Shown: piece by piece, positions 29,850 to 57,392 of the stretch | Numbering within the stretch: position 1 is the stretch's first letter | Layout: the number at the start of each line of letters is the position of its first letter | Virus record (IMG/VR): IMGVR_UViG_3300044712_000786 | Span: 64,001 to 128,000 of that record | DNA length: 64,000 nucleotides | DNA from: a virus | Lineage: Duplodnaviria > Caudoviricetes | Strand: one strand, 5' to 3' | Notes under the pieces: model-generated | Databases searched by the model: none | Seen by the model: only the letters and a program-made list of their open reading frames with translations | Told to the model about the DNA's origin: nothing | Position numbers and translations under genes: made by a program

Positions 29850-30246
29850 AAGGGGCTGCTGCCCTTATATTTAACGTTAACTGCTTCCAAATCAGCTAAC
29901 TTAAACGGCGAGAGAGTCTCTCTTAAGAGTAGCATTATCCCAATCATACCAAGAATTTTCCCAGTGTCAAGTGGGTAAATCCCCCATTTATTGGCTCGCT
30001 TTTAACTTCAAAATCGCTAAATTCTCATGCAGTAGATAAGATGATAGTTGAGATAAGTTAGAGAAACGCATATCAGGATACATTTCCTGAACCCCGTCAG
30101 CAATCTGGACTAACATATTTGAGATAGTAACCATTTGCTCGGGGCCATCTTGGTTTAATACGTCTCTATTATTTAGCACGATTTCGCTCGACATTCGCGC
30201 CAATTCATCTGCCTTATTTTGAATTATTTCCGTTAACTCAGGTCCG

Positions 30247-33200
30247 CTATATGTTCTCATAAATTGCTGTTTCAACTGAATGCCATAAAAGATTAAGAGG
30301 ATTATCTTCGTAGATAAATAGCCTCGCCCCATCTAAATCAACCTTACGAACCTTTTTCTTTAATTTATTCCAAGCTTCGTTATCTATCTGAGGTTTGATT
30401 TTGTAAAAGCACGGGGACATAAGCTGGTTAAATGATATTTCCAAAAAACAGCTTAAAAAATCGTAATCTGTGCGAAATAGGCATTCTAACTCGTAATTTT
30501 ATAAAACTTATTAAAACAGACATATTCTTATATGCCTCAACTAAGGCCGTTGAGCGATAGAATTTAAATCCTTTATTATTGAACCACATTACCTCTGAGT
30601 CGAATTTGTCTTTTACTGACTTCATCCTATTAGCTTTTTTTCACTTGTCAAGTCCTTATAGATTTCTCTTGTTATTGCCGTATAAGGTATATTTCTTAAA
30701 AATCTAAATTTTGCCCAGCTAATACCCATATCTACCCTATGATAGATATGGGAGTGTCCACAACCATTCCTAATCTCATTTGCAAAGTCAAATATTTGTT
30801 TATTTAGCGCTCCCATACGAATATCCTTATTTTATCTACAAGAACATCTACTAATATCCATATTTGGCTTTCGTCTTCTATTCCTTTATAAGCTAACTTA
30901 CGGATATCCGAGTTTACATTAGCAAATAGCTTTCCATAGCTTTGACAGTCTATTTCCCAAAATCTAGACTTAATAGAATCCATATACAGCCCCCCTTACA
31001 TTTGACCTGATGTTCCTAATAACAGATAAATACAGGTGACGAAACACTTCCATATAGATTCCTTCGCGTGCATCTATCTGATTAAGTCTAACAAGGATAA
31101 CAGGTTGCATATTTATTTGAACTTAGTGCGTTAAGTGATATCACTTTGATAGCATTAAATAAAGAAATTCATTATTTAGGGAGAGAAGTTTTTGACAGAA
31201 CCCTATTTGTTATTTTAATCATTCCCATACTATCCTCCATTCTTCTCTATTTCCTATATCCCGCAAAGAGCCTAAGACACTTTCCGTTATCGAATCAATA
31301 TAAGAACAACGCGTCTCTATTTTGTCATAGGCAGAATCAAAGTCCATTGGATTGATATCGTTTAAAGCTTGGTGGCAAAAGGAATCTATTTGCCAATAAA
31401 CTTTATCTTTCAGACTTTTCATCGATTAAATAAACAATTATAAGAGTAAGCTTCGTCCTCTACTTGGAGCCTTAAATCACTTAATGTAAGTGATATTCCA
31501 CTATTATTGATTTTCCTTATTTCTTCAAATTGAACGAAGTCTTTTAATCGCCCCCATGCCCACACATCTAATTCAAAACGTATTAATTTACGTAGCGGGT
31601 TCATCTTTGATTAAATAAACAAATGGATTTTTGAAACATCTGCCCTAGTATTAAGCTTTATATTGATAAAATGAGCTAATTTATGCTCTGTCTCGCGCAT
31701 AACTGAATTAAACATTGGGTTATCTATGCTATTAGCTAAACAAATATGGTAACAGCTATTGTCGCACTGCCAGCCGAAAAATCTAAATAAAGGCGTCATT
31801 TAAAGCCTATCCCTATTATATCTACCCAAAGGAAGTTCCTCAAGCCGTATGTCTTTGCTTTGAGGTTTATTTCGTGGTTAGCTAGGCTTACGCTTTCCCA
31901 ATAAATACAAATATTTAATAGACGCCATCCAGATTTCTCTTCTTCCAATATTAAATTAAAACAGGGCTTCATTTTTTAGACAGACGTTTTCTAGACTCGC
32001 AAGTGATTGTCACCATCAAGCGATTCAAATCAGCAAAATAAAGCAAAGGAAACTCAACAGATTCTTCTACTTGATACCACATGTTGGGAAACCCGCCAAT
32101 TCCCGTAACGTTCGATACGATACTATAACAGCTATTGTCCAGATTCCAAGCAAAAAAGTTAAATAAAGACTTCATTATAGCTCCATAAAGTATCCATTCT
32201 TAAGGCATATCTTAAGTCCCTCAAAGACAGTTTGATATTCGTATTTAGGTTAGCTTCCCTTATTTCTTCAAAGCGAACAAATTCCGCTAATAGCGCCCAT
32301 GCCTCGGAGTCTAATTTGTCAAACTTAGTCCCGATAGGCTTCATTAGATATCCTATCCCTCAGAACAAGAAATATATCCCTTATAAAATAGGGGATTCCG
32401 AGACGTTCTGTTTTAAAATAAGCGTTGGCGGATATAGAAAGCCCAGCCACCCTCGTAACAGCTACCCAGCCAAGAGCATCAGCACCATCAAAAATATTTA
32501 TCCTATTCATTCTGTTAGAGCGAGAAATCTTCTACATAATCATCTACTATCCACTCAATACCATACCTAAGATATTCGGTCACGCCTTTGTAGGTTTCAT
32601 TAATCATGCGAGCACTAACTAGAGAGAACATACCTTGATAACATACCATTTCATGGCGACCAAACTCATCACTTAGACTGTTCATAAGCTAAATAGTTTT
32701 TTCCGTATCTTATTGCAGTAGAACGAATTAACGGGTTTAGCACATAAACGTCAGATATGGTCTCTATCCCATAATAAGCTCTAAAATATGAAATAACAGG
32801 GACAGAACGATTGATAGAATTCCAACAAATAGTATGGACTATAATTTTGACATTTTTAATCGGTTCCATATCCTACCAGCTATTTTCAAAAATACAACTG
32901 TTTTTTACTTCCCAATATATCAAGCCCTTCAATCTAATCCTGTCTATCATAATCTCGACCCGATGGAAGACATGATTAACGATAGGCATGGGCGAGCCTT
33001 GGGTTATCACAGCATAAGCTTTCCTCTGCTCATCTATATAAAACCTATCACGTAAGTTGTTCATCCGCAAGCCTTAACTTAGTCTCCAAGACTATAACGC
33101 GAATATAAAACATTCTCATATTAGAATAGCATTCGCTCCAATCGACAGTACTAATAGTATCTTCTGGAAAAAGGAATTTTTTAGTAGATTTCACAGCGTC

Positions 33201-36200
33201 CACCAGCCGCGCCACCTAATCATCAATGGAAACTGAAGATGCCAATAGTTAATCTTACCATTAGCCTTCAAAGCTTCCCCTTTCATGCTGTAAAACCCTT
33301 CAGGAGTAGCACAGGCGGCACAAAGCCTAGGATTCCCGCCCAAGATGGGAGGGTTAAACTTCCCGCAATTATCGCATCTTTTAATCTTCATATGTTGCGC
33401 CAAACAACTTCCCAATAAACCGTAGAACGAATATCGGGTCTAAGTTTAATTTTAAACCTAATTCCTTGTCTGACAACGTGAAACACCCCCGCATCTAATG
33501 CTTCGGGCCAGCCTCTTCCGCCATCAAAATGGATTCGTTTCATATTTCCAAAAATCTATTTAGGGCACTTAGACAGGGCTTTTTCCAAAAGCTCAAAAAA
33601 TTCGTCTTGAAAGCCAATATTAGGACTTCCGTAGTCTTCGGGGGTCTCGAACTGTTCAATATTATCTAATTTATTCACATGGGTCAAACCTGACCTTACC
33701 ACACTGTTAGAGCTTTCACCGATGATAGCCAGAAGAATATAGGCTTCCTTGGGGCTCAGAGTTAAAACTACGTCAATTTGTTTTGATATAAGGGCAGCTT
33801 TCATTTTTCAATTTTAGCAGTTATTTTCTCAGGGTCAAGGCTAAGATAAAAAACGAAATTGTATATTAACCATTTAGCTTGAATGTTTGTTGGGGGACGT
33901 AAAGCTACATGAGCTTCATCTACGGGACGAGTATTGACTATTTTGCTTAACTTATTAAATGCGTCTATAGATGCATCTTCCCTAAGTCGAAACAAGCTCT
34001 TCATAAGTCTCTATGTAGTTGACAAGGTTGGTTAGATGAATCCAAGGGCAAGCCTCGTGCGGGGCAAAGTGTTCTACTTCAAGACGATAATTCCAAATCT
34101 CATGATTAAAACGGAGTGTATAACTAAATGATTTCATGTATCACAAAATAGTCATTTCATTTACGTCGAATAGCCAATCGTAAAGTATCCATACATGCTC
34201 TTTAATCACTTTAGTTTCTAATTCTTCCGAAACTTGCACTAGAATCTTACTTTGTAATACCTCGCCAACGTGAGGATAGAAAATTAAGCCACTTACATTA
34301 GTCATATTTTAAGCCCCAAGATATTATCCATTTGTTATTGCTTTCTATGTATGGCTCTATTCCTTCCTGAATCTCTAAGATAACGTCATAAGACATCACT
34401 CTAAATAAGTCAACGTTATAGGGGCGGTCACCACAAAATTGAGCCCATAAGCTTTTCATTTTCAAAAATCCAACATTTCTTCTAGCTTGCGACATACTCT
34501 TCCATCTAACCTATGCATAAAATTACCCGCTCCTCCTACAATAAGCTGTTGTTCAAAGGTAATGATTTTATTACCCATTTGTCTTATTACAAGACCAACT
34601 AAATTATAACCGACCTTTTGCGTTACGGGACTCCAAAGCTCTTGACTGTCCATAAATTGGAATTTAAATTGCTCCATCTGTTTCCTTAACTTCTATAGAG
34701 ATAGGCCCAACAAATCTAGCTATTGCCCTCACTTCTTTAGTAACTTGCCTTATAACTAATAAATCTACTTCCGCGCATAGAGAATACCAAGGGGAAAGAT
34801 TCATTCTATTTTTGATAGACTTCATTTATAACTTTCGTAAATAATGGAGCTACTACGAACCTAAAGGTTATGTTTATTTTGTCTCTAGCTAAGCCTCTAA
34901 GATTTTTATTAACCATCTTGCTTATGTAATAACAAAGCATAGGGTCAATGGGATATTTAACTGGCTTCATATCTTCCAACAGCCGCTTTTAATTGTAAGC
35001 AAGATTCAAAGTAAAGAACGCTAACCTTTGTTCTAAATTGTGCCCGAGCTGAGCTAGTTGTCTCTCTATTTAATGTAGTAAAAGACTCGGTGTCACAGCC
35101 CCAAATTAACAGATGAACGCTATTCATGTATATTATCCAAATTCTTCAAGTGACAGACCTTCTACCGTTCGATGTTTCAAATAAAGAGCCGAACAATTAA
35201 ACTCTATCTCTTGCAAAGATATTAAACACTGGATATAAGAAAGGCATTCTTTGCTCTGAGACCAGCAAACCGCATTATAACTATTAAAGATGTCTCTTAC
35301 TGTATTCATTCTAGCGTCTTTTTTTCCCAGAGCAAGCTATATTAAGAGATTAAATGAAAAATACCGTTCAATGACCTAAAAAAAGCGATATTCCTTTCTA
35401 TTCCTTCTTCCGCTTCATAATAACGGCCATTACTAACCTCGAATACAGATAACTTATTACGAACTGACTTCATAATTCCAACTTACGTATTCCTTGGGGA
35501 TAGGTATTCTCGGCATAAATTGCCCTAGCCACCATAAAGCAGAAGCCTCTTCTAAGTTATGAAAGGCATCCGCTCTAACCCAATATGATACGTCATCTTG
35601 GAAGTCTCCCCAAATGTCATAATTCAGGTTAAAAACTTCAATTCTCTTCATAATGAAATAGATTTCTAGGAATAAATATCAACTGCTCTCTTATTATGAA
35701 TAGCCTAGAACTAACTTCTATTGACCTGTAAGTAAGATTTCGCACGTCAACAGAAAGAGGAATTGCGGACCATATGCAAGTATCTATTCTATTAAACTCT
35801 CTACGTAGAGATACCATAATGCCTTACTCCCCTATAAACACTATTAGATATTTCATAAACATCTGTCATACCATATCTTACGTCCTGAATGACCCTTCTA
35901 ATGAATTCTCCTTCTACATGATAGAGTAACTCATCGAATACGATATTAGACAATCCTTCGGGCGTTACTGCAAGAACCTTTTTCATCTAAAGCTTTCTTG
36001 GAAAACAAAAATTTCCTTTTCAAAGCTAACCTCCCTATAGAAACTAGAATTCGGACCCATTAAAGCTACAATCCAGTCATCTAGCTCTAATGCCGCTAGC
36101 GCTATATCAGTCATGTCTCCATTTATAAAATGACTCCTAACCGTCTGCCAATCGGTAGTTTTTTCTCTAAAAAATTCCCTTAAGTTCAGCATAGATTGCT

Positions 36201-37470
36201 CCCTGAAGCGGTTCGACAAGACTCCAAACTTTCAATTGGACATTAAAAACACAAGCCCATCGGACGCTCCAATCGGCATCCCTTAGAATAGCGTCCCAAC
36301 AGTGGTCTCGTATTTCATTAAATTCAGTAATAGGCTTCAATTGCTTTCTTGGAGGTATCTTCTATAATGTCGATTATCTCAATTATAAAGTCATGGTGAT
36401 ATTCAATTCCGAATAAACCCGCCCGTTGAACAACATAAGATGTCCGTTTCATTACTATATCTCCCCACGCTCCAATGCTATAATCTGTAAAATTGTTCAA
36501 ACGTTTCATTTGTTAGCACAAGAGAATCTATTACCGCATCGCTCGCAAATATATTATCAAAAGCCCTTTTAACGACGATTACCTTGCGGTGATATTGCGA
36601 TATAGCCCTAGTCGATTCTAGTTCCACGTTATACAGTCTGTAGACAACGTTATTCATTTAAGAATAGCTGTCTTATTTTTAGCCAACTGAATAAAATCGT
36701 TGACTTTCGCATCTGTAAAACAGACGTATTCGCGCAAGCAAGACTTTAATTCATACATGTTAACAGCATGACGTATCTTGTTGGCTTCCTTGTCTTTACC
36801 CATGCTGCGAAGTTCCTGCAAGCACGCTTCCAAAATTTCACGATAGCTCATTTAAGTATTCTAGACAAAATTTTTCCAAAATCAAGAGCATTCATCACTG
36901 TACTTTTTATTCTGATTACTCTTAACCCTTTAACAACCCTTCGCTCCGCAGGGGTTAAATCGTACAATAGAAGAAACCTTACCTTTTGGCTGTTATAAAA
37001 TGTTATGTATTCCGAAATACTGTTCATAAAAACCCTTCACAGAGTCGTATATTCTTCCCGAAATACGAACGCAATCTATCTTTTCTATAACAAGGTCATC
37101 TGTAGAGTTACGGGGATGAAACAGAAATCTTACTTTATCGTGCCTTAAAGATATCTTGTCCTGTAGTGGAGTCATATATTCCATTTCTAATAGGGGCCAA
37201 TAAGATGGATAATTCCCTTTCTATTCTATCAACGGGGAGAGTCATCCTTAATATAGAGCTAGGCATATTCCGCCACCAGATATCCATATTCTCGGGAAGC
37301 ATTAGTTTAATAGTGTCCATGCCTGATTATCGCTAATTGAAGATTTATATTACCATAACGAGCGTCCAGAGGAATTTTAGATATCCAATTTGATATATCT
37401 GGCTTAATGTTATAAGGGATGAGATAATAAAAAGCCGCAAAACAACCAAGGGAGTATCTTCCTAATGGAT
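30247..37470 (-). other. Dense tandem array of about 35 coupled mini-ORFs (45-80 aa)
   Basis: About 20 are in the ORF track; more under 60 aa were translated manually (e.g. MDSIKSRFW.., MKPCFNL.., MNSLSDEF.., MKSFSYT.., MKSIKNR.., MKPVKYP.., MNSVHLL.., MNTVRDI..). Shared start M-[KNDT]-[SPR]-[LIV]; start/stop overlaps. Confidence 0.75.
33556..33804 (-). CDS. Hypothetical protein, paralog of 37471-37710
   Basis: VVLTLSPKEAYILLAIIG versus VSLTLSPREAYIILIAMG. Confidence 0.7.
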   Translation of the reverse strand: MKAALISKQIDVVLTLSPKEAYILLAIIGESSNSVVRSGLTHVNKLDNIEQFETPEDYGSPNIGFQDEFFELLEKALSKCPK

Positions 37471-37710
37471 TCATACCTCTAAAGCATCAATAATCTGTCC
37501 GTAAGCTTTATCGATAACTTTATGTTCCCTTGTAGTAATAGGCTTCCTGACTTTCTCGGGAATAAACTTAAGGTGCCCGTAGTCACGAACCTGATTAATC
37601 TTTTCTTCTAGCCGCGAGGGGGTTATATCCCCCATAGCGATAAGGATAATGTAAGCTTCTCTGGGAGAAAGAGTTAGACTTACTCGCTTATTCTTACTCT
37701 TGATTTTCAC
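37471..37710 (-). CDS. Hypothetical protein, paralog of 33556-33804
   Basis: Same shared motif. Confidence 0.7.
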   Translation of the reverse strand: MKIKSKNKRVSLTLSPREAYIILIAMGDITPSRLEEKINQVRDYGHLKFIPEKVRKPITTREHKVIDKAYGQIIDALEV

Positions 37711-37872: not shown

Positions 37873-38142
37873 TCATGATTCAATAGTAATAGGATTCTCG
37901 GGGGTAGCCCAATATTCAACATTAAAACCGTCCAGCTTGCTATCAAAGGTTAATTTCTCGCCCACCTTAAAAGGTATCAAATCGCATGAAAGATAAATGC
38001 CCTCGCTCTTTGATAGGGCTAAAACTACGACATCCTTCCATCTCCTGTCCCCTGAACCCACCGCTCCTTGATGAACTAACACACAGGGATAGTCCTTCAC
38101 GTAAGATACTTTCCTAGTCGCGCTTAAATTAACTTTAATCAT
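37873..38142 (-). CDS. Hypothetical protein, paralog of 39304-39570
   Basis: DYPCVLVHQG...WKDVVV versus EYPVLMEHQG...WRGIIV; promoter TTGCGT-N16-TAAAAT-N6-ATG. Confidence 0.65.
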   Translation of the reverse strand: MIKVNLSATRKVSYVKDYPCVLVHQGAVGSGDRRWKDVVVLALSKSEGIYLSCDLIPFKVGEKLTFDSKLDGFNVEYWATPENPITIES

Positions 38143-38179
38143 ACCCCAATTTTAAATTGAATTTTTAAAAACGCAAGAA

Positions 38180-38413
38180 CTATTTACGAACTTGAGCCAT
38201 GGACGAAACATAACATCTGCTCCAAGTTTCAAAAATGAAAAACTCATTCGAAGTAGCTGTATCGGTAACATAGATAATAGTGCGGTAAGTATCTAGTTCC
38301 TGAGTCTCTACAGTAAAGCGGCGTTTAGGGGGAGGGGGAAGCGGGGCTTCCGCTTGCTGAGTAGTTTGCTGGCAGCAACCCGCCAACATAAGGAGTAATA
38401 GACAGTATTTCAT
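38180..38413 (-). CDS. Small lipoprotein
   Basis: MKYCLLLLMLAGC lipobox. Confidence 0.65.
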   Translation of the reverse strand: MKYCLLLLMLAGCCQQTTQQAEAPLPPPPKRRFTVETQELDTYRTIIYVTDTATSNEFFIFETWSRCYVSSMAQVRK

Positions 38414-38688: not shown

Positions 38689-38874
38689 ATTTTAAATTTA
38701 ATTAAATTTTTTCGAAAATAAAGCTAATTTTGAACGTTTCTTCTCTAACAAGGTACGCTAAATCTAGTATCGTATCGTTTACTTGATTATAAATTACTAT
38801 TCGTGCTTTATAGGTGATATTCCAAAACACATTTGCTCTTGTGGGAGCATTAGCAACTACCTCTCTTAAGGGCT

Positions 38875-39159
38875 TCATTCCTGCTCTACTAATATAGGCT
38901 TTACATTAGGAGAAAAGGTTACTTTAATAGTAATAACCTGATTAGTCTCAGATTTAAGCGCCTGAAGCTCTCGCTTAAGGGCTAGAACCTCATTTCTAAT
39001 AGCTTCTCTTTCGGCGCTAAGACGGGCGATAGACTCTTTTAAAGATATCTCTCTTTTAATATCGGGGGAGTCTGTTGCAATAAGGCCCACCAAACCAGCT
39101 AGAAGAGCCACTATGATACAAAGATATAAACAAATAGATTTCATAAATTTTTGTAACAA
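38875..39159 (-). CDS. Membrane-anchored coiled-coil protein
   Basis: N-terminal transmembrane segment followed by heptads. Confidence 0.55.
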   Translation of the reverse strand: MLQKFMKSICLYLCIIVALLAGLVGLIATDSPDIKREISLKESIARLSAEREAIRNEVLALKRELQALKSETNQVITIKVTFSPNVKPILVEQE

Positions 39160-39303: not shown

Positions 39304-39570
39304 CTATTCACTGGATAAGGTAATGCTGCCCTTAAAGGGCTTCCAAATGGGCGACATGATATCTTGGTTACAATAGGCTTGCCCCGCTTTAACATGAGGG
39401 TTAAGACTAGACCAAAGGATAGAGCAAGTAAATGCGTTTGAAAAAACGACAATTATACCCCTCCAAAGCTCATTTCCCTTCCCATCCGCCAATAAACCTT
39501 GATGCTCCATTAAAACGGGATATTCCATTTTCCTTACCTCTTCCTTCTGATGATTCACTTCAATCTTCAT
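39304..39570 (-). CDS. Hypothetical protein, paralog of 37873-38142
   Basis: Same shared motif. Confidence 0.65.
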   Translation of the reverse strand: MKIEVNHQKEEVRKMEYPVLMEHQGLLADGKGNELWRGIIVVFSNAFTCSILWSSLNPHVKAGQAYCNQDIMSPIWKPFKGSITLSSE

Positions 39571-39896
39571 ATTCTAATTTTATCTTGGTTTTTTAAAAAA
39601 TCAACAACGAACAGCTTTAAATTGTGCCTTAATCCAAGGGTCCAATCGGGTCTTTTCTCCGTTCTCTTTGAGAAGTCTGTAAAAGAAACTTTATTTAAAA
39701 CTGTATACATAAAGTTACAGTATATCGGTAGCTCTACCTTATTCATAGCTCCAATCCATAACAATACCTTGCATATTAATCCTTAGTGTCATAGTCCAAT
39801 CGGCTCTTTGACGAACAACTAATTGAAAGGATTTGTGTCCTATGCTATCTATAATAAATTTTCTAAATTCTAAATATCTAGGTGTGGCTATCTTAT

Positions 39897-40259
39897 TCAT
39901 TCCTGAGTCTTTTCATAGACGATATGATTAATATAAACAGAACTTAGCAGACTAGCATAAACTATAGTAGCGGTCACGAACCAACCTAAAGAAATACATA
40001 ACCACGAAACAATGAAGTCGAAAGCCATGTTGACCATTAATCCCAAAGGCCAAATCCTCTGTCGGCGCATTGTCCGAATCATCGTATTATAAATGTCATC
40101 CCCGCTAGTCACCCACATGGATACAGCGACAAAGACATTACATAGATTTATAAACCAAAGCAGCCCTTGAGTCATTAAAGGCGTATACTTACCATGGGAA
40201 AAGAAACTGAGAATGACCATTCCAAGTATGCAGAGGTTGCCTATCAAATACTTAAGCAT
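39897..40259 (-). CDS. Multi-pass membrane protein
   Basis: Four hydrophobic segments. Confidence 0.6.
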   Translation of the reverse strand: MLKYLIGNLCILGMVILSFFSHGKYTPLMTQGLLWFINLCNVFVAVSMWVTSGDDIYNTMIRTMRRQRIWPLGLMVNMAFDFIVSWLCISLGWFVTATIVYASLLSSVYINHIVYEKTQE

Positions 40260-40433
40260 ACTGTATGGTCTCAGAATTTTTTAATAAATCAATAAATAAT
40301 TCGGGATAAATATCGATAACCTCATCGATTGTTCTAACATAAAAAATACCGAAGCAATCAGAAGATACATTTAGTATCCTAGTCACATTAACGGAAGCGC
40401 GAATAGCCGTATCGACTTTACGTCTAACGCTTT

Positions 40434-40676
40434 TCACGGCTCTTGAACTTCCTTCAAATCGTCTTCCTCAGTTAGGACAGAGTTACAGATGGCGCAAAAA
40501 CACTCTTCTTTCTCATAGGACGGGTGCCTTGACCCATCGGGCTCTGTCTCCAAGGCTTCCTCTACGTCCTTCCTAAAGCAGTAGAGTAAGTCAGCTATAA
40601 CATCCATGTCCTCGGGACTGGGGGGAAAACAATCCGCGCAAAGGTCTACAAACTCATCACCTACTTCAATTCTCAT
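40434..40676 (-). CDS. Acidic Zn-binding small protein
   Basis: CADC...CFCAIC; very D/E-rich. Confidence 0.55.
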   Translation of the reverse strand: MRIEVGDEFVDLCADCFPPSPEDMDVIADLLYCFRKDVEEALETEPDGSRHPSYEKEECFCAICNSVLTEEDDLKEVQEP

Positions 40677-42340: not shown

Positions 42341-43600
42341 TCACTTCCCCATCCTCTCAAAGTTTTTTAAAATGTCAATAGCGCCTATCGCTAAATTTCT
42401 AAAATTAGGGAGAATTGCATTCAGCATATTCCATCCGCTCGCAACGCAATAATTCTTCGACTCAATTTTACGATACATTTCTATGGATAATGCTAATGTT
42501 ACTTCATATGCAATGGGCTTCATAAGAATAGTTCCTTATAATGAAGATAATGTCCCATAAATAAAGAGACTGCATGGGAAAGTATTCCATCAGGTCGATA
42601 TCTTTTTCGACGCTTACATTAACAATCGGAAGTAGCAAAGAATTCATAACTAATAGACATCTGTATATTTATTACCGTGCTTCTATCGAACATTCGGCCT
42701 ATTCTATCCGCCGCTTCCCATATCGGCGCAAATGAATCAATTTGTATCTTTCGCTTAATTTGACGGGCACAAGAATCCTCGGAGTGGACGGGTTTATCGA
42801 AAACCTTGGCGATAACGTTTTTCAGTGTCCCTCCTTATAATATCTCTAAAACTGGTTACTTTATAGACTAACTTATCTCGGACTAAGTATAAGACACTGT
42901 ATGAAGCTATAGAGCCTAAAAACCCAGTCCCTACAACGCGAGAAAGTAATTGGGTATGATTCACGCAGGCTTATTTTTAATTTCGTTTCTAGCTTCTGAA
43001 ATTTGCGTTCTAAGCATTGTAGCCCTAAAAGGTCTCGTTATGTCCCAATAGGGCTGAAGACTCTCTATATTCATCTTCGCTTTAATGCGTTTATAACAAG
43101 CGTCAACATCATCCCAGACGATTTTATCGAAAACATCAAAAATTACTTCATTCATTTTAAGTTTTATTTTTAAAAAGTCAATGCATACTTACAGTAAAGA
43201 TAGATAATTCCCCTTAGCTCCGCAGAAAGTAACCCGTCTCTAATTCCATAGTGTGAATCTATCCATATATTATCGCTAATCATCCCCGCAGTAGACATAG
43301 GTTTAGTTAGCTGATATAAGCTTATAGAATTCATGGCGGCAATCAAACTCTATTTGATTTACTAAAAATCTACTTAATCTAATATTAATAGATAAATCGC
43401 ATTGACTCCAAATAACCCAAGGAATGTTACAAACTGCGCTAGGGAAAATGAAGACGCATTTCATTATGGATGACTATATCTATATGGTTTACTAACCAAG
43501 GCAGCTTTCCATACGTTTCACGTAAGACTGTATGATATACACCATCATTAAAAGAAACCCGCTTATCTGCCCATGATTCTGAGTCGCTCCTAATAAAAAG
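42341..43600 (-). other. Cluster of mini-ORFs of the same style as 30.2-37.5 kb
   Basis: MKPIAYEV.. (42523), MNEVIFDV.. (43155), MKCVFIF.. and others. Confidence 0.6.
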
Positions 43601-43611
43601 CGCAACAGATT

Positions 43612-44211
43612 TCATCGAACTTCGTCCAGAGTAAGGACGGGGGGCTTTTCTTTAATTGTAACTTCCCAGCGTTTGTCATGTAATATTTGAGTTAGTTGAT
43701 AGTAAACCCGAAGAAACAGATGCTTATTCGCCTCGCTTAAGAGGGGAAGGAGTAAAAGCTTCTCGGTTAAATAGGTTTTAGCAAAGCCTTCGTCATTCTT
43801 TGCGATGTCTTCAGTATTATCTAGCAAATCGGCAAGCTTAATTAGCTTAGCCTGAGGGGAGGTTAGCTTCAGCCGAAACCGCTCCAGTTCTTTGCGGTCA
43901 GCCCTAACTAGAGTAGGATATCGCTCCTTAGTATACTGGTCGGTTAGCTCATCGACTAGAGATAAGACTCTTGCGCCGAAACGATTCAGAATCCAATCAT
44001 CGTTATACTCTGGAGCTAAAGGAGTTACGTCTTCCTTTAAATCGTGAGCTAATGCGGCGATAATAACATCTTCGTCAGAAGTATACTGAGAGACAATCTC
44101 GGCGACCCTCTCAGTGTGAGTCCAATAGGGCTTTCCCGTATACTTGCGAACCTGCTTGATGCTATCATGAGCATCCCGCAAGAGGGGTCTGGCAATATCT
44201 ACATCGTTCAT
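43612..44211 (-). CDS. HD-domain hydrolase, RelA/SpoT hydrolase (Mesh1/SAH)-like
   Basis: RKYTGKPYWTH...VA...AALAHDLKED...IKLADLLDN; start moved to 44211 by promoter TTGCTT-N16-TAGGAT-N6-ATG. Confidence 0.8.
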   Translation of the reverse strand: MNDVDIARPLLRDAHDSIKQVRKYTGKPYWTHTERVAEIVSQYTSDEDVIIAALAHDLKEDVTPLAPEYNDDWILNRFGARVLSLVDELTDQYTKERYPTLVRADRKELERFRLKLTSPQAKLIKLADLLDNTEDIAKNDEGFAKTYLTEKLLLLPLLSEANKHLFLRVYYQLTQILHDKRWEVTIKEKPPVLTLDEVR

Positions 44212-44405
44212 CTTCAAATCCTATCAGCTATTTTTAAAAAAGCAAATTAAAATCATGAATTATCCTATCCCTCATTCCATATCCAGAGTGATTAGAAGCC
44301 AGCCCAAAGGGGCTCCTTCCCTCTGTCTCTCCTTCAATAAATCTTTCTTGAGGGTGAAACTTAATCAGATTCCAAGCCCAAGCTAATCCATTATATTGTA
44401 GACTA

Positions 44406-45188
44406 TTAAACAGGGGATTCATTAGAGAACAACGCGCAGTTATCCAAACAGAGCTTGTTATTAATAAACAGCCCCGCTACAATGGGATAATAAATAGCTA
44501 AACAAAGCGAGTTAGCTACCTCTTCATTAAAGGTAAACCTAACCGTTGTCTTGTCATAGGTTCGCTTAACCTCTTCCTCCGCGTCTTCTACCATCTTATT
44601 TAACTGAGCTTTAGTATAAGAAGCGGGGTGAGTTTTAATATCCATTAGGATATCTGCCATGCCTGAGTCAATCTTCCTGACATTGACGGGGAAAGACCCA
44701 TTAATAAAGAAATACTTAGCCGCCCAAGCTAGCCTAAGTAGTTGTACTGCATTCTTTTCAGAGAAGCCATGAGACTCAATAGAAGCTTTTCTCTTGCTGC
44801 CTAATGCTCCCGTCCGCTCGCCGTTCATTAGCCTCTTTTCCCCTGACATATAGCCTAGGATAGACTTAAAGAACTGCGCCGAATCTATTAAATCATATCG
44901 ATGCTTAACAACTAATTCCCATTCATTAGAAGTAGTAGTAAAGTTGTCAGTAAATAGCAGCTCCATAGCCTGAGTATTAGTCTTGCGTAAAGAACAAAGA
45001 AAGTGTCTAAATTCAAAGAGGAACTTATCTTCTCCCCCCGCTCTTAAGTCCTGATGCTCAAAGCGGTCAACGCCGATTACTTTATTAAGTTCGGTATTGA
45101 CAAAGCACCCCCTTTGGTCTAAATCACTAGTGGGGGTATTTAACCCGTAAGCATGGGAGCCCCCCAGAGTTTCACAAATAATCTTCAT
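44406..45188 (-). CDS. Pol-beta superfamily nucleotidyltransferase (RlaP/YcgL-like)
   Basis: GGSHAYGLNTPTSDLDQRG...NTQAMELLF...KNAVQLLRL. Confidence 0.82.
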   Translation of the reverse strand: MKIICETLGGSHAYGLNTPTSDLDQRGCFVNTELNKVIGVDRFEHQDLRAGGEDKFLFEFRHFLCSLRKTNTQAMELLFTDNFTTTSNEWELVVKHRYDLIDSAQFFKSILGYMSGEKRLMNGERTGALGSKRKASIESHGFSEKNAVQLLRLAWAAKYFFINGSFPVNVRKIDSGMADILMDIKTHPASYTKAQLNKMVEDAEEEVKRTYDKTTVRFTFNEEVANSLCLAIYYPIVAGLFINNKLCLDNCALFSNESPV

Positions 45189-45189
45189 A

Positions 45190-45976
45190 TTGAAATTGAA
45201 ATCTATACCATCTTTCTAAATTAATGGATAAGTCTCTAATGTTTATTAGCCCTAATGCCCACATATGACTTTTGTATTTGCTATGTGCGTGATTATTAAT
45301 TGCATCGTCCCCGTATATTTCTAAAAATCTACGATTCATAGTCTAAATAAGATGGGGACGGGGGGCGTTTTTCGCTTAGTACTATGCGGTTTCCCCTACT
45401 TTATTCGGAACCGCATTTCCATACCCCCGCCTCGCGTTGTCCCATCTAAAACTATCTTACTTTAAATTTTTTCTTTGTCAACGTTATCCCTGACAATTCT
45501 CTCGGCAGTCTCTTTAAGTTGCACTACAATTTGGTTTCTTCTCATAATTATATTAGTATATCCTAATTGATTCTGTATACGAAGAGAACAATGAGTCCCC
45601 CAGCATGTAGTATATCCTTTCGACCACCAGCCGTATTTAAATAAATTCTTCATAAACAAAGCGGCTTAATTCTATTACCCTAGGTCTAGTTAGACAAGGA
45701 AATTCTTCGAATATGGGGTTCATGATAACATTCATGTTAACTAAGTCATTTAGGTTACCATTAGCATCGCTAAACATTTTATCATCTATCAAACAAATAC
45801 AACTATTCATATCGTCTTTCCATAATGTCCCCCTTAATCAACATTGCTTCTGCTCTAGTTAAGCGATACTGACTCTTACTTACCTGTGCGAAAACAGTCA
45901 AACCCAATTCTATTTCTATTTTACGCTTTAGCTCGTAAAATATCTCTGAGTCTATTTTAGAATCGATGCTTTTCAT
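45190..45976 (-). other. Cluster of mini-ORFs
   Basis: MKSIDSKIDSEIF.. (45803-45976), MNSCICLIDD.., MKNLFKYGWW.. Confidence 0.6.
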
Positions 45977-46914
45977 ATGCCCCTTACCTCCTTTAGGATA
46001 TCCCTGCCTAACTTAGTTATAACTCGACCCCTTTGCTCTATTCCTATCAAGTGATGCCTAAGTAAGAATATCTCTATGTCTCTTTGAACACAAGCTCGGG
46101 ACAAGCCAGTCTTAGCCGCTAGAGAGGTTAGTGAGCACTCCCCGCATTTTTCCAAAATCTCTAGCACCTGAATTTCCAAGGGGCTTAGACCCAAAGGATG
46201 AATATAAAGCTGTTTCTTAATGTCAAGCCAGTCCCCCAAGCTAAGAACATTCTCCTTAATTGATTGTAAATACAGATTTATCTTATTGCCCAGCTTAAAG
46301 GCGTCTCGACCATGGCCCCGAAATACTCTCTTAATCTCTTCCATAGCCTTGTTAGAAATGACGCTAGGAGCCGCCCCCTTACGTGCAATCTCGCAAAGCT
46401 GGTCAGTAGTATAGTCTTGCAAGTCGATACGTTCTAGACGGTCCAGAAGGGGATTAAAGACCTTTTGAATCTCGCTGGTAGCCAATAGCCAAGTAATCTT
46501 GCTAAAGTCTATATCTAGTTGCATGTCCCCGTAGACAAATACGTTCTTATTACCTTTTTCAAGGTCAAGAACTGACAAAAGATTCATTGACAAATCTTTA
46601 GGTATCTCGGAAGCTTCGTCTAAAAATAGGGTTACCTCCCTGCCTATTACCATGGGAAGGAGAACCCTATTGACGAATTGGGCAGTATTCCTAATAGTCG
46701 AACAGTTAATTCTTAGAAAAGGCTTTATCTTAGTTGGGTCAGAAGGGCAAACAAGCTCTTTAGCGAGGCACTTAGCCATACTAGTCTTGCCATTACCCTT
46801 GGGAGCAACGAAGATAGTAGGCATAAAAATGCCCGAAGCTTTATAGCCGTTGAAAGCAAAGCTTAGTTTAGACTTAGCTTCCTCTTGCCCAACTATTTCA
46901 TCAAGATTTAACAT
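45973..46914 (-). CDS. RuvB-like AAA+ ATPase
   Basis: IVGQE..K, APKGNGKT, LFLDEA, PLLDR, C-terminal winged helix LGL...LAAKTG...IE..L.....I..RGR.IT. Confidence 0.8.
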   Translation of the reverse strand: MLNLDEIVGQEEAKSKLSFAFNGYKASGIFMPTIFVAPKGNGKTSMAKCLAKELVCPSDPTKIKPFLRINCSTIRNTAQFVNRVLLPMVIGREVTLFLDEASEIPKDLSMNLLSVLDLEKGNKNVFVYGDMQLDIDFSKITWLLATSEIQKVFNPLLDRLERIDLQDYTTDQLCEIARKGAAPSVISNKAMEEIKRVFRGHGRDAFKLGNKINLYLQSIKENVLSLGDWLDIKKQLYIHPLGLSPLEIQVLEILEKCGECSLTSLAAKTGLSRACVQRDIEIFLLRHHLIGIEQRGRVITKLGRDILKEVRGI

Positions 46915-50227: not shown

Positions 50228-50920
50228 ATGAATAGCAAAATTTGCACCAAATGTCTTATTAATAAACCTTTAGATGAATTTGCGAAAGACTCTCGGGGGA
50301 GACTTGGGAGACGGTCTGATTGTAAGATATGTAATTGCGAAAGGAGCAAACGATATCAAAAGCTTCACCTAGAGCAAGTATTAGCAAAAAATAGAGCATG
50401 GGTATCAAAAAATTTAGACCATGTAAAAGAATATAGAAGGAAAAATTTACCTCGCGATAGAGAAAGGACCAGACTAAGATATGCTAACGACGAAACGTTT
50501 CGTATTAAAAAAATAAAAAACGCACGAGAATTCAGAAAAGACCCCAATAATAAACAAAAAATTCTCAGCACCCAAAGAAAACTCGCGAAAGAGTATAGAA
50601 AGAATCCTATATGGCGTATTAAAGCTAATCTCAGACGTAGATTATGTTTTGTTCTACATGGAAAACGTAAAGCTGAACACACTTTTAATCTAATCGGTTG
50701 CACTTTAGAACAACTAAAACAGCATCTTGAATCTCAATTTACAGAAGGTATGCGTTGGGATAATTATGGTAGAAATGGCTGGCATATAGACCATATTAAA
50801 CCATGCGATGCATTTGACTTTTCTAAACCAGAAGACCAAAAGGCTTGTTTTCATTATACTAACTTACGGCCATTATGGGCTAAGGATAACCTATCTAAGG
50901 GTTCAAAAATTATATCCTGA
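50228..50920 (+). CDS. HNH homing endonuclease
   Basis: N-terminal CTKC..CKIC; WHIDHIKPC..FD...CFHYTNLRPLWAKDNLSKG; antisense to its neighbours; GTGTAA at 50212. Confidence 0.85.
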   Translation: MNSKICTKCLINKPLDEFAKDSRGRLGRRSDCKICNCERSKRYQKLHLEQVLAKNRAWVSKNLDHVKEYRRKNLPRDRERTRLRYANDETFRIKKIKNAREFRKDPNNKQKILSTQRKLAKEYRKNPIWRIKANLRRRLCFVLHGKRKAEHTFNLIGCTLEQLKQHLESQFTEGMRWDNYGRNGWHIDHIKPCDAFDFSKPEDQKACFHYTNLRPLWAKDNLSKGSKIIS

Positions 50921-51204
50921 TATTATTTTACCGCTAAGCTTCGCTTCATAAGTAATAACGGTAACATAAGATACTAAGTTAATGCCTCTACGTAAACCCG
51001 CTAGACGCACTTCATAAGAGAAATCCTGATATTGATTTACATCCTGCTCAGAATCATATCTGACAATAAACCTAACGGATTTCCCCATATATCCCAGCAA
51101 TTATTAAATGCATGTTAACCAAAGAGCTAGTATTCATCCCCGCGTTCCAAATGGGCTGTCCTAACCCAGCAGCGTAAAAAACCCCAGTTCCTAGAAATAA
51201 GACT

Positions 51205-51756
51205 TTATTTGCTAGGGGTTTCATTAATCCCAAGAAGTTGTAAGGTCTTCTCCCACATGTCTTTATCTACGAAAAACATGAATCCATTAGAGCAGTCCAA
51301 CCAACCCACGGTCTCCAGCCCCCACTTAGGAGGTTCCTTTTGAAAATGGATATCCAAGTTAATAAACTCTTTTGAACGATAGTTCCCCGCAGCTAGGGTT
51401 TTAATATGTTCCTGAATATCCTTAGCGTGAGCTTTATGGCAAAGGTAATAGACAGTAGGCTTGCCTTCTTTAATTACTAATGAACCCGTGATAATCTTCT
51501 CTCTGTTTTCGATAAGGAAAGATAGGCAGGACGGGACAATGCCCCATTCAAACTCAGAGCTTCCCATATAATCGAAGGAGAAGATGTTTCTAATTGCGTC
51601 CATTCCTTCTTTAGAAATGCCTCCGTTTTTCAACCCCCCGCCAAAGCTAAAAGGATTGTCTTGTATTCCGAGCTTTTCATGAAATACTTGGGGGGCATTC
51701 AACCTTTGAACTAGCCAACTACGGTCCAGCTTCTCTTTGAAATAAAATTTATCCAT
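51205..51756 (-). CDS. Hypothetical phage protein
   Basis: 183 aa; FSFDYMGSSEFEWG. Confidence 0.65.
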   Translation of the reverse strand: MDKFYFKEKLDRSWLVQRLNAPQVFHEKLGIQDNPFSFGGGLKNGGISKEGMDAIRNIFSFDYMGSSEFEWGIVPSCLSFLIENREKIITGSLVIKEGKPTVYYLCHKAHAKDIQEHIKTLAAGNYRSKEFINLDIHFQKEPPKWGLETVGWLDCSNGFMFFVDKDMWEKTLQLLGINETPSK

Positions 51757-52247
51757 ATTTAGTTTTTAAAGTCCACCAGCAATCTTGGCATACATATTCG
51801 GGTCCAAGCTTTCTATAATTATAACCGACTTTTTTGCAACGTAAACAAGATTCTTCGTGTTTTAAAAGGGGGGAATCGTGCTTTTGAAGTTTGGGAAGTA
51901 TAGCGGGATGCATACAAACATTATGCCCGTCATTCCAAAGACAGCCAGTATGGTCATTAACGCACATTCCTTCTATGTCGTTAGTAACATTCGTTTCGGC
52001 TAAACGAAGACAACGTTCTGTGCCTTGCCAGCTATGAGTGTTCATGCCCCCAATCCTACCCGCTATTTTTTAAAAAGCAAATTAAAAATCGAAATTCGTA
52101 ATCCCATTGGAGCGAAGAAGGGTTATGACTAAATCAGTTGCCGACATAGGAAGACGTAAGCCTTTACGATAAAGCGCGCTGTATAATTCATTATACTCAA
52201 TAGCGCTGCTACTATCGTTAAATCGAATAGCATTGGAAACAATACGG

Positions 52248-52569
52248 TTAGAGTTCATAGTCAACTACTTTATTCTTTATATCTTGCCTGAGGTTCTCTG
52301 TTAATCTATTATCAGCTATACTCTTAAAAAGATAACGGCCAAGAGCAATCCTAAATGAATTAAACCTCTCTAGGTCTTCGGAGTCATTATCTAGACGAAC
52401 AGTAAGTTTAAGGGAATTCATTGTTAATCACACGCGAAATATTGGAAAGTAATTGAGAAATATCCAAAGATGGAGCTAGCTTATACCCAAATGCTAGCAG
52501 CAAAAGTTGTCTATACTCGCTCATATTTGCCGTATCATCTAAACGGACAATCACTTTAAGCGGGTTCAT
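52248..52569 (-). other. Two tandem VR[LY]D-type mini-ORFs
   Basis: 52408-52569 MNPLKVIVRLDD..; 52248-52421 MNSLKLTVRLDN.. Confidence 0.7.
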
Positions 52570-52732: not shown

Positions 52733-53170
52733 CTATTTAGCTTTGTTCTTCTTTGGGGCTTTCCTCGGGGCTTTCTTAGACCCTTTATTACAGTATAAGT
52801 CTGCATGTATTGTAGCCAGTGCATGTTTCGGACTTAATCCACTAAAGTTATATTGGGGTTTTACTCCAATTAAATCCTTCCAACCATCCGAAGGCTTTTC
52901 TTCTGAATCTCCATCCATCCAATAACGGGCGGCAATCGCTTCCCTTCCTACATCGAAAGTCCACTCCCTAGACTCGTTTTCTTCTTCGCTTAAAGTTTCT
53001 TCTTGCGTATTGTTATAGATTTCTTCAGATGATAAGTCTTCTTCTAGAACCTTAATACTCGCATCTATTTTATCCCAATTACTATCCCCGAAAGCCGTCC
53101 TCTCGGGAATGAGAGGCTTGATTTCTTTCAGCTTGGCTATTTCAGCTAGAACTTCTTTATTAGTCTTCAT
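52733..53170 (-). CDS. Hypothetical protein, acidic core and basic tail
   Basis: 145 aa. Confidence 0.6.
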   Translation of the reverse strand: MKTNKEVLAEIAKLKEIKPLIPERTAFGDSNWDKIDASIKVLEEDLSSEEIYNNTQEETLSEEENESREWTFDVGREAIAARYWMDGDSEEKPSDGWKDLIGVKPQYNFSGLSPKHALATIHADLYCNKGSKKAPRKAPKKNKAK

Positions 53171-53967
53171 ATATTAACGTCAAATTCTCATTAGCTTCAT
53201 TCATTATAACCGTATGATATGATAATATGCCATAAGAGAAGCGTATCCCCGAATCTACGATAGCGATTTTCATCGATAAATATTCGGCGGTATCATCATG
53301 GGTATCATACCTTACTTGCTCTTTTATACTATCCATGTAATATTCACGCCTACTTCCACCAATTAGGGTCTACGGCAGCTAAAGCATCGCCTAATTCTTT
53401 AGGGGATACCCAAGCTAAGTCAGCGTAGGTATGTTCGTCATTGTCATTAGGCATATCGGTAACTAACCTAAGGCAACGGTGATTTTTAGTTAAATGAGCT
53501 ACCGTGCGTAGAAATTGCTCTAATTTTTCTTTATCGTGAATTTGTTTCATAACGGCTTCTTAGACGCAGCTTTGCAAGCTTTGCACATTTTAGGATACAT
53601 AAGCTCATAATTAAAGAACACTGCATCAAACATAATTAATTTGCCGCCCGATATCCCACATAGGGCCTTACTTCTAGATAGTCTTTTATACTTATCCGCA
53701 TCAACGAAGTGCCGAATTGTGCCACGGCGAGAACCGACAGTTACTAAGTTCATGCTCTCTCTTCGTTTATATTAAAATACTCGGCAGCTACCTTTCTAGC
53801 ATACTCATAGCACCTATCTCGTTCTACAGCCGCCCTAGTCCATTCGTTTTTAGCTCGCTTGCTAGAACCGCTTCGCCCCGAAACATCGCACAGCCTTTGA
53901 CTATACCTCTCAGCTTTTCGGAGGCTTCTAACTGCTAAGTATAGTTGTTCTAGGCTATCTATGTCTT

Positions 53968-54357: not shown

Positions 54358-54727
54358 TTTTAAAAAGTTTCCAAGCTAACGCTCCCATAAAAATCACTAT
54401 TCCTGTAGCAAATATCTCTATTCCCACGCTAAAGAATAATCGGACAATAAAGGGCACTACTTCGTCTGGAACAGAAACAAAAGATTCGTATGATAATGCG
54501 GTAAAAACTAACCAAACCCCGAAACAGATTAATACTGCAATGTATTTCATACCCCTAGTCTCGCAGATATTTTTTAAAATGCAATAAAAAATCGTGAGTT
54601 CTCCCCGATATCATATCGCAATCAAACGGGGGAATAGTTATCTCATTACTCAACAAAGCTTCCCACGAATGAGAAAACTCTTTAAGACTATCAGAAGTAT
54701 CTAAACGAACTATCCTATTTAAGGGCT

Positions 54728-55372
54728 TCATATCTTAGTACAATAATACATAGAAGAGGGGCCATCAACGACTTCTTCTATTTTAAAGCGGGGGGATAAT
54801 ATATCCCTATATTCTTCCTGAGAAATCCAATCAAAGGTAGTTAGATGAGGCTCTAGCCCCGAAGATGTTTGTATATGATGAATCTTATCACCATCCATAA
54901 AAGTGACTTCCATATACCTTCTATTATTTAAGCTATAGCGCCTCGCCTTAGGTTCAGAAGAAGGTTTGCGCCCGAAGGTATTAAACACAAACATACCTCC
55001 AGCAACTAATTTATTAGCTAAGTCTTTGGCATCTATCTCTTTAAGCCAATAATTCACACCTTGACGGCACACGATTAAATCAAATGGCGCGTCTATCTCC
55101 TTAAGCCACCGTTGGATAGAACAATTATGGTATCCAAACTTATGAGAAACATGAGCTTTAAATTCATCGGGCACCATTAAAGGCTCTTGGTCTACTAAAG
55201 CAACAAAATTAGCCCCATGACTCAAAGCATATTGAGATAATAACCCATTTCCACAGCATAAGTCAGCAACGTCCTTACCCTTAATATCCGTCTTAGCGAA
55301 GAATGCCTCGGGGCCTTTCTTTAAGAAACGTGCATAAAGAGCTTGATAAGTTTGATAAGCGGGATATCTCAT
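54728..55372 (-). CDS. Class I SAM-dependent methyltransferase
   Basis: VADLCCGNG, VALVD, FDLIVCRQG, L..GG.FVFNT. Confidence 0.85.
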   Translation of the reverse strand: MRYPAYQTYQALYARFLKKGPEAFFAKTDIKGKDVADLCCGNGLLSQYALSHGANFVALVDQEPLMVPDEFKAHVSHKFGYHNCSIQRWLKEIDAPFDLIVCRQGVNYWLKEIDAKDLANKLVAGGMFVFNTFGRKPSSEPKARRYSLNNRRYMEVTFMDGDKIHHIQTSSGLEPHLTTFDWISQEEYRDILSPRFKIEEVVDGPSSMYYCTKI

Positions 55373-57077: not shown

Positions 57078-57392
57078 ATATTTAAATTCTAAAATAAATT
57101 TTTCAAAAAGCAACCTAAAAATTCTCGTATGCAATTAGGTAATTCCCAAGAGTGACTCTGACTCCCTCAATCGAAAATTCAAAATTTAAATGTTCGGGAA
57201 AAGCACTCATTAATTCAACGTACTCATCTAAACTAGATGAATCTTCCCAACGGGCAAAGCGGCGAATAGAATTCATCTACCAAGAAGTCTTGCCACGAAT
57301 CTTATCTATAGCACCCAGCACCATCAAAGGAAAAAAGACGATGAACATTCCCACTTTAATACAAACCCACATAAAAAACTTGATAAGAGTAT

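Follow-up and report, generated by a model that had tools for sequence, protein, structure and literature searches.

How do dozens of minute, mutually dissimilar open reading frames (ORFs) come to be packed almost without gaps into one stretch of a phage genome, and are they genes of common descent, independent orphans with similar starts, or not genes at all? This question is raised by the minus-strand array at positions 30247-37474 of a 64,000-nucleotide stretch of viral DNA (Duplodnaviria; Caudoviricetes), referred to here as the window, which corresponds to bases 64001-128000 of the 202,704-bp jumbo phage record IMGVR_UViG_3300044712_000786 in IMG/VR. The array is made up of real coupled genes, and most of them bear an N-terminal signature that is selected at the amino-acid level. 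On balance, the best explanation overall would be a private and heavily expanded family of paralogous mini-proteins with an early, host-directed role, whose N-terminal module may act as a handle. Blocks of small genes are ordinary in large phages; a signature family of ~60 copies that occupies ~5% of the genome and has no relative among 1.84 billion protein clusters is out of the ordinary.

Coding status, layout and signature of the array

Curation of the array yielded 41 minus-strand ORFs of 43-82 aa, which together cover 97.5% of its bases. Between positions 29988 and 38142, 34 of the 44 junctions between neighbouring genes overlap, most often by 4 nt (ATGA, 12 junctions), 17 nt (seven) or 14 nt (five); a start-choice rule limiting overlap to 4 nt was dropped because genuine overlaps of 14-20 nt are common. 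A preliminary description of this DNA, made from the sequence alone, had reported a tiling of about 7 kb by small overlapping ORFs, and the tiling is indeed nearly gapless.

The ORFs are coding. With a codon log-likelihood table trained on 88 phage genes of at least 200 aa, the frame of the ORF itself scored best in all 36 array ORFs tested, and the mean score of array ORFs was 0.127, as against 0.167 for genes of 100-200 aa that had not been used in training and 0.001 for decoy ORFs on the opposite strand (52% frame-first). Within the closest paralog pair, identity amounts to 64% at codon positions 1 and 2 and to 40% at position 3 (nonsynonymous divergence, dN, 0.51; synonymous divergence, dS, 2.5). 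Public protein collections contain gene products that match the called sequences and starts, and contigs from four rhizosphere metagenome runs, two of which may be the source of the virus record, carry the same DNA with 0 differing letters over the covered parts. The earlier view of the array as real coupled genes forming one recognisable, extremely diverged class holds, and the class is lineage-specific.

Approximately 37 of the 41 ORFs in the main array carry the family signature, M-[KN]-[SP]-[LIV]-x3-hydrophobic-x2-3-[LIYF]-D-x3-[WFY], which spans ~12-23 residues; a 16-member alignment of array sequences (A3) has the consensus MKSxxxxFxxxDxxxWxxxxxxVxxxxxxxAY. The strict word M[KN][SP][LIVF] followed by an open frame of 35-100 aa occurs 38 times on the minus strand, 30 of them at 30.6-59.5 kb, compared with 0-2 times in block shuffles. 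A relaxed word gave 53 candidates at 30-60 kb, of which two are probably spurious; the 51 members kept have an ATG start without exception and measure 58.0 ± 5.7 aa. Counts were not taken from an N-terminal position weight matrix, which fitted its training sequences too closely (leave-one-out median 4.6 bits). Beyond the main array there are ~22 dispersed copies at 38.7-59.7 kb and ~10 copies on the plus strand at 9.9-11.7 kb, giving a family of ~60-65 copies and ~11 kb, or ~5% of the 202.7-kb genome. Phenylalanine, tryptophan and tyrosine together make up 13.4% of residues in the family and ~10.3% in the phage's other proteins. In these respects the preliminary description proved largely accurate: the shared starts (given there as M-[KNDT]-[SPR]-[LIV]), a D-x-x-x-[WYF] motif (given there as D-x-x-[AC]-[WY] and visible in the A3 consensus), the aromatic richness, the uniform length and the recurrences at 42.3-43.6, 44.2, 45.2-46.0, 50.9, 52.1-52.6, 53.2, 54.6 and 59.5 kb were all recovered, and its estimate of ~60 copies in the window was about right; the set at 9.9-11.7 kb is also real, but it lies on the plus strand.

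Ancestry and distribution of the family

The signature is selected at the amino-acid level. In a nucleotide logo, information is found solely at the ATG and at +3, +4, +7, +10 and +22, which are first or second codon positions, while the third positions +5, +8 and +11 hold none and nothing is conserved upstream of the ATG. Serine at residue 3 is encoded by TCN in 12 cases and by AGY in 10, and residue 4 uses 12 different codons; the freedom of third codon positions and the use of both serine codon families place the constraint on the protein. The stop codon of the upstream gene often lands inside the motif, so that the recurrent C-terminal endings of the form [YN]-E-x-x are a by-product of it.

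Similarity past residue ~23 is weak but significant. Direct searches over all small ORFs recovered eight paralog pairs, five of which fall inside the family. An N-anchored BLOSUM score over residues 5-44 reached z = 7, and column hydrophobicity peaks at residues 8, 16, 19-20 and 23, with a variance of 0.0113 against 0.0047 ± 0.001 in shuffles. Profile hidden Markov models (HMMs) were evaluated by five-fold cross-validation on sequences stripped of their first 4 or 8 residues, leaving out known paralogs; the members withheld from training outscored composition-matched shuffles (p = 7e-4 with 4 and 1e-6 with 8 residues removed) as well as control small proteins (p ~1e-14). The preliminary description had made its family depend on similarity that extends past the start residues, and such similarity is present, although the gain is small (~1.5 bits). 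In pairwise Smith-Waterman comparisons with the first four residues removed, 31 pairs scored at least 35 where 8 were expected, and the mean score was 26.2 for pairs less than 400 bp apart and ~21 for pairs farther apart (permutation p < 0.0005). Such a decay of similarity with genomic distance points to old tandem duplication followed by dispersal.

It has to be considered that most members might be unrelated orphans with convergent starts, the start word being required for reinitiation or early elongation in overlapping operons without Shine-Dalgarno (SD) sites rather than reflecting ancestry or protein function. This account draws on the position of the motif exactly at the upstream stop, on the 24 of 44 junctions that overlap by 4, 14 or 17 nt, on the A at +3 that an ATGA overlap enforces, on an alignment between subfamilies that reaches residues 1-12 only, and on jackhmmer searches within the genome, where each seed recruited at most four members and one seed also took a shuffled decoy. 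It nevertheless seems unlikely, given the free third codon positions, the mixed serine codons and the uniform length of 58 ± 5.7 aa. Furthermore, the motif is present in 34 of 65 coupled small genes at 30-60 kb but in just 3 of the 47 that lie on other parts of that strand (Fisher p = 1.4e-7), and it is as frequent in uncoupled genes at 30-60 kb (10 of 19) as in coupled ones. Gene coupling alone therefore fails to explain the signature, and an order-dependent similarity that survives the removal of eight residues and decays with genomic distance is not what convergent starts would leave behind.

Searches for relatives outside the genome returned little. Pfam-A searches with 33 members at E <= 1 gave eight families with one member each (best E 0.008, none at the gathering score), and PHROGs v4 gave two single matches at E ~0.05. 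Profiles of the array subset (A3) and of a dispersed subset named after its VRLD motif (A2) had 0 matches among PDB sequences at E <= 10. An hmmsearch with A3 over 1.84 billion representatives produced 12 hits, all of them this genome's own proteins, and word-index searches with one member and with A2 likewise found only this genome's own proteins. No match to the array was obtained by megablast against 50,697 phage records, and when all genes were compared by tblastn with nine IMG/VR loci that contain GP88, with the 116-kb IMG/VR relative G1 and with 115 kb of another relative, G3, no small-ORF homologue emerged. Scans of metagenome contigs gave nothing for the neighbouring 134-aa gene and only AAA+ proteins at 25-46% identity for the RuvB-like gene, with no close relative among them. 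A literature search on paralogous small genes of jumbo phages brought up nothing relevant.

Comparison with G1 places these negatives in a genomic frame. G1 is syntenic, with rIIA, a rIIB-like gene, the RuvB-like gene, ~3 kb of intervening DNA, the 134-aa gene and GP88, followed later by terminase and portal. The interval that separates the RuvB-like gene (45973) from the 134-aa gene (29849), ~3 kb in G1, measures 16 kb here and is filled mostly by family genes. G1 and G3 contain small paralog groups only, with no motif enrichment. In the sequences compared, the family is thus shown to be private to this phage lineage, with a syntenic relative that has no such block.

Three further observations touch on duplication and on G1. 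At 31419-32344 (minus strand), the paralog pairs 32159/31419 and 31969/31611 flank the gene at 31796 in the order A' B' C B A, an order unlike the product of a simple tandem A-B duplication. In G1, at ~18.5-30.6 kb on the plus strand, at least seven ORFs begin with near-identical stretches (MSHPLCYT(L/R)RM..., ...FLCYIIRMK..., ...FSCYIITMK...), which probably represent a repeated upstream DNA element read as protein through the longest-ORF rule, not a protein family. The region of G1 at 105-116 kb comprises ~11 kb without a long ORF under code 11, its tiling showing Pro/Val-rich short frames only, and may be recoded or rich in repeats.

Expression, candidate role and fold

The explanation favoured above can be set out as a sequence of steps. 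Old tandem duplication and subsequent dispersal would have generated the family, leaving neighbours more alike than distant copies, and each gene would now consist of a conserved N-terminal module of ~12-23 residues and a body of ~35 residues that has diverged beyond recognition. The array would be transcribed by the host RNA polymerase from sigma-70-like promoters abutting start codons, and translated through termination-reinitiation across the overlapping stop/start junctions in a genome nearly devoid of SD sites. In the last and weakest steps, the proteins would act early on host targets in takeover or counter-defence, with the shared module serving all of them as handle or structural anchor and with specificity residing in the variable body.

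As for expression, a repeated promoter-like word, TTGAC(A/G)-TTTTAAAAA(G)-N6-8-TA(nn)AT, stands 6 nt before an ATG, a spacing that suggests leaderless mRNAs for the first gene of each unit. The copy predicted upstream of the array, at 38138-38176, is likely to mark the start of a transcript running into it. Between 38 and 30 kb the minus strand has no predicted intrinsic terminator, and no RNA structure above shuffles appeared at 35310-35341 or 31111-31218, the two widest gaps between genes of the array. SD-like words precede 17-25% of genes in the whole genome, large structural genes included, compared with 13% of random positions; with SD words barely above random, the host is probably an SD-poor bacterium. 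Judged from these sequence features, the array probably forms one or two long transcripts whose internal cistrons would depend on termination-reinitiation.

With regard to function, the small size and orphan status of the genes, their place among rII, anti-restriction and RNA-repair-type genes, and their lineage-specific expansion fit early host-interaction genes, and the family can be assigned to this class with moderate confidence. A more specific version, possible but rather unlikely, is a library of binders in which the N-terminal 12-23 residues dock on a common hub (a host protease or chaperone, a phage enzyme, or the capsid interior) and each ~35-residue body recognises a different host protein. 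If this were true, a single duplicating scaffold would yield inhibitors or adaptors by the dozen, directed against host defence and physiology. The family would then be a prokaryotic-virus counterpart of the multigene families known from large eukaryotic viruses, and minimal binding domains could be drawn from it as a natural source.

Several results weigh against the favoured explanation or limit its reach. An hhalign comparison of A3 with A2 aligned residues 1-12 only, at a probability of 7%, and part of the presumed family could be unrelated small genes with a common N-terminal word. The five closest family pairs have dN of 0.51-0.95 and saturated dS of 1.2-2.5, with dN/dS < 1, which shows that the closest paralogs are under purifying, not diversifying, selection and that every duplication is old; an ongoing arms race is accordingly not demonstrated, and the diversifying selection proposed in the preliminary description finds no support. 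Structural models produced with AlphaFold2 (AF2) are of middling to low confidence and conflict at the N-terminus (helix 4-22 versus coil 1-14). Early timing is read from promoter-like words found in a consensus scan, which gave, overall, no more sites than shuffles. No RNA run is listed among the sequencing runs that hold the stretch. The function is deduced purely from size, position and neighbours, and the anti-defence library suggested earlier is likewise a matter of inference only.

Comparison with characterised small-gene loci helps to place the family. The hyperplastic internal protein (IP) locus of T4-type phages contains diverse small ORFs with a common N-terminal capsid-targeting sequence of ~10 residues. 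Both loci consist of small genes of fast turnover between conserved genes, with a short conserved N-terminus, unrelated bodies and a block that is absent from relatives; here the common part comprises residues 1-12(23), bodies are unalignable between subfamilies, and the genes form one hypervariable locus. The differences are considerable: ~60 copies are present instead of a handful, the motif ends in hydrophobic-Asp rather than [LI]-x-Glu, and host-type promoters precede the genes. Moreover, T4 IPs are packaged and cleaved, whereas the present family is known from its genes, and no PHROG or Pfam match indicated homology to IPI, IPII or IPIII.

It is doubtful that the family represents packaged cargo, in which a capsid-targeting or processing signal would occupy the N-terminal ~12 residues up to the hydrophobic-Asp, while the head would take up the ~45-residue remainders, to be injected along with the DNA as a ready-made counter-defence arsenal. 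The combination of a short conserved N-terminus, a hypervariable body and a hyperplastic locus recalls the T-even IP locus, and [LIYF]-D at residues 9-13 is a common end of the motif, but the T4-type protease consensus [LI]-x-E is absent, no larger protein of the genome has the same N-terminus, and the genes stand behind predicted host-type promoters in an accessory block, not among head genes.

The host-takeover module of the Bacillus phage SPO1 and the early blocks of T4, T5 and Twort-like phages contain dozens of mostly orphan genes of 50-100 aa behind strong host-type early promoters. The present locus resembles them in its small orphan genes arranged head to tail and in a presumed action on host machinery. 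However, the genes of SPO1-type blocks are mutually unrelated, whereas here most belong to one duplicated signature class and are chained by stop/start overlaps without SD sites. The repeated promoter of such blocks may have a parallel in the promoter-like word found at seven sites of the window, with one degenerate copy within the array, though the generic promoter scan did not rise above shuffles. Large DNA viruses provide another comparison in their multigene families and genomic accordions, such as the amplification of poxvirus K3L and the families of giant viruses and asfarviruses. Tandem amplification followed by divergence of copies, and the occupation of several per cent of the genome, are common to both; in contrast, those are viruses of eukaryotes with larger proteins, and accordion copies are recent, while all copies here are older than synonymous saturation. 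A fit to ribosomally synthesized and post-translationally modified peptide (RiPP) precursors of the prochlorosin type failed, as conservation is confined to the first 12-23 residues and the ~35 variable residues that follow are not rich in cysteine (Cys 1.7%). Among the neighbours scanned (HD, RlaP, methyltransferase, DFP, RuvB-like, rIIA and GP88), which are part of the genome's genes, there was no lanthionine synthetase or cyclodehydratase.

At the structural level, the family protein is an aromatic-rich and, to judge from the models, probably helical mini-protein. AF2 predicted four helices for A3 (4-22, 25-35, 41-51 and 53-59; predicted local distance difference test, pLDDT, 67) and a coil at 1-14 followed by helices at 15-36 and 40-55 for A2 (pLDDT 62). 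Foldseek against the PDB gave 0 matches; a wide VIA-align search reached a best Z of 4.2, within noise for helical models, with no ribbon-helix-helix (RHH) protein in the rows listed; and two members taken to the ESM Atlas had no usable feature match, the Atlas model of one having a pLDDT of 0.53 and heterogeneous structural neighbours. A predicted homodimer of the VRLD subfamily (score 0.01, partner pLDDT ~40) has no bearing on dimerisation either way. In view of the short inter-subfamily alignment, the differing AF2 models and the lack of usable Foldseek or VIA-align matches, the single small fold suggested in the preliminary description is not supported as stated.

The A2 model, extended at 1-14 and then helical, looks as a lone RHH monomer model would, and the conserved Asp followed by S/T-x-x-[WFY] resembles a helix N-cap after a strand. 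These features would suit RHH-like binders, in which an N-terminal strand (xVRLD) and two helices form small dimeric DNA-binding or antitoxin-like proteins. Such an identity is nonetheless more doubtful still than packaging: the A3 model is wholly helical from residue 4, the helices exceed canonical RHH length, no sequence match in Pfam, PHROG or PDB appeared at permissive E-values, and no RHH family was present among the Pfam matches of the 33 members at E <= 1.

Scarcely credible, and already largely refuted, is the reading of the ORFs as chance frames, pieces of one large frameshifted or recoded gene, or decaying pseudogenes: their shortness, their orphan status and the low confidence of structure predictions speak for it, but one-strand runs of stop-free frames are unexpected at 34-39% G+C, the strict motif stands at 38 against ~1 in shuffles, codon usage is gene-like in 36 of 36, reading TGA, TAG or TAA as sense merges no ORFs into a long gene, non-synonymous change is in deficit between paralog pairs, and assembly error is unlikely given the identical sequence in contigs of four metagenome runs.

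No part of phage genomes is less well understood than their blocks of small orphan genes, from which many host-takeover and counter-defence proteins have come. Under the favoured explanation of an expanded paralogous family, most of one such block would be traceable to a single duplicating scaffold with a protein-level N-terminal signature and ~60 natural variants in a single genome, so that the old question of how phages create new small genes, and what such genes do, becomes more testable. The family offers a comparative set for structures of a 58-residue domain, a pooled library to be screened for toxicity or defence inhibition, and an N-terminal peptide as bait for partners. It also represents a clean case of gene chaining by stop/start overlap without SD sites, in which the effects of selection on the start word and on the protein can be told apart.

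Genomic setting and further features

The larger genes of the phage encode a portal protein, a large terminase, an ERCC4-type nuclease, an anti-restriction homologue, rIIA, a RuvB-like AAA+ protein and a GP88-family protein. The terminase is only ~25% identical to that of the nearest phages in a GenBank-derived phage collection and ~55% identical to that of IMG/VR relatives. A minus-strand block at ~64-170 kb of the genome contains ~186 ORFs of at most 100 aa. The part that holds the family is accessory and lies on the same strand as rIIA/rIIB, the anti-restriction homologue and the HD and RlaP enzymes; its promoter-like words would make it a block of early type. The positions of the array, of its dispersed members and of associated features are given in the table.

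Table. Members of the small-gene family and associated features (window positions)
Feature	Position	Strand	Remarks
Main array	30247-37474	-	e.g. 37307-37474, 37135-37320, 36993-37175, 36848-37027, 36478-36657, 36324-36509, 36167-36340 ... 30428-30625, 30247-30420; ends include stop
Non-family 79-aa gene directly upstream of array	37471-37710	-	ATGA-coupled to 37307-37474; paralog of 33556-33804
Non-family 82-aa gene inside array	33556-33804	-	paralog of 37471-37710, 29% identity
Non-family 66-aa gene inside array	33191-33391	-	CxxC...CxxC (zinc-ribbon-like)
Non-family 65-aa gene inside array	36654-36851	-	N-terminus MSYREILEAC
Predicted sigma-70-like promoter	38138-38176	-	TTGCGT, TTTTAAAAAT, TAAAAT, 6 nt, ATG; abuts start of 37873-38142
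Degenerate copy of promoter word inside array	32867-32897	-	directly before ATG of 32669-32869; sole copy inside array
Repeated promoter-like word	44245, 39604, 38176, 29104, 16579, 15966, 15614	-	also at 73694 (window-relative), past the window end
Dispersed member MKPLREVV	38702-38878	-	ATGA-coupled to 94-aa gene 38875-39159
Two neighbouring members	39567-39746, 39739-39900	-	mutual paralogs
Member MKSVRRKV	40252-40437	-	GTG start
Member cluster	42341-42523, 42504-42647, 43170-43334, 43439-43615	-	last ATGA-coupled to HD-domain gene 43612-44217
Family-like ORF in the preceding cluster (42341-43615)	43303-43464	-	
Member MNPLFNSL	44234-44422	-	17-nt overlap with end of RlaP-type nucleotidyltransferase gene 44406-45188
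Three members	45462-45653, 45637-45810, 45803-45976	-	last ATGA-coupled to RuvB-like AAA+ gene 45973-46914
Two members	50903-51088, 51072-51224	-	first of VRYD type
Three VRLD-subfamily members	52082-52258, 52248-52421, 52408-52569	-	
VRLD-subfamily member	53160-53336	-	MDSIKEQVRYD
VRLD-subfamily member	54555-54731	-	ATGA-coupled to methyltransferase gene 54728-55372
VRLD-subfamily member	57115-57276	-	MNSIRRFARWED
Two members	59282-59458, 59455-59676	-	
Mini-array, ~10 family-like ORFs of 54-76 aa	9893-11714	+	MKSVAVQVRL, MNSLRAPLDHF, MNRLRDHFLTF and others; five end in DF
Larger gene with member at 3' end	38875-39159	-	94 aa, membrane-like
Larger gene with member at 3' end	43612-44217	-	HD_4
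Larger gene with member at 3' end	44406-45188	-	RlaP-type
Larger gene with member at 3' end	45973-46914	-	RuvB-like AAA+
Larger gene with member at 3' end	51205-51756	-	183 aa
Larger gene with member at 3' end	54728-55372	-	methyltransferase

Six larger minus-strand genes have a family member placed over their stop codon, the overlap being ATGA in four and 17-20 nt in two, which gives the impression that new copies come to rest at the ends of genes or that every enzyme is accompanied by a small partner. The two paralogous non-family genes of 79 and 82 aa each head one half of the array. They share the stretch (V)xLTLSP(R/K)EAYI(I/L)L, whose strand-then-helix look is reminiscent of RHH regulators, and neither has a Pfam match. 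Just upstream of the presumed promoter of the array, in the same operon region, a 77-aa ORF (38180-38413, minus strand) has a lipoprotein-type signal (MKYCLLLLMLAGC). The sole tRNA found by ARAGORN in the window is a tRNA-Leu with anticodon TAA at 21127-21215 on the minus strand. Finally, the minus-strand gene at 55369-56463 encodes a 364-aa protein with a DFP domain (CoaB-like flavoprotein C-terminal) and adjoins the methyltransferase gene, and the two may form a nucleotide or DNA modification module.

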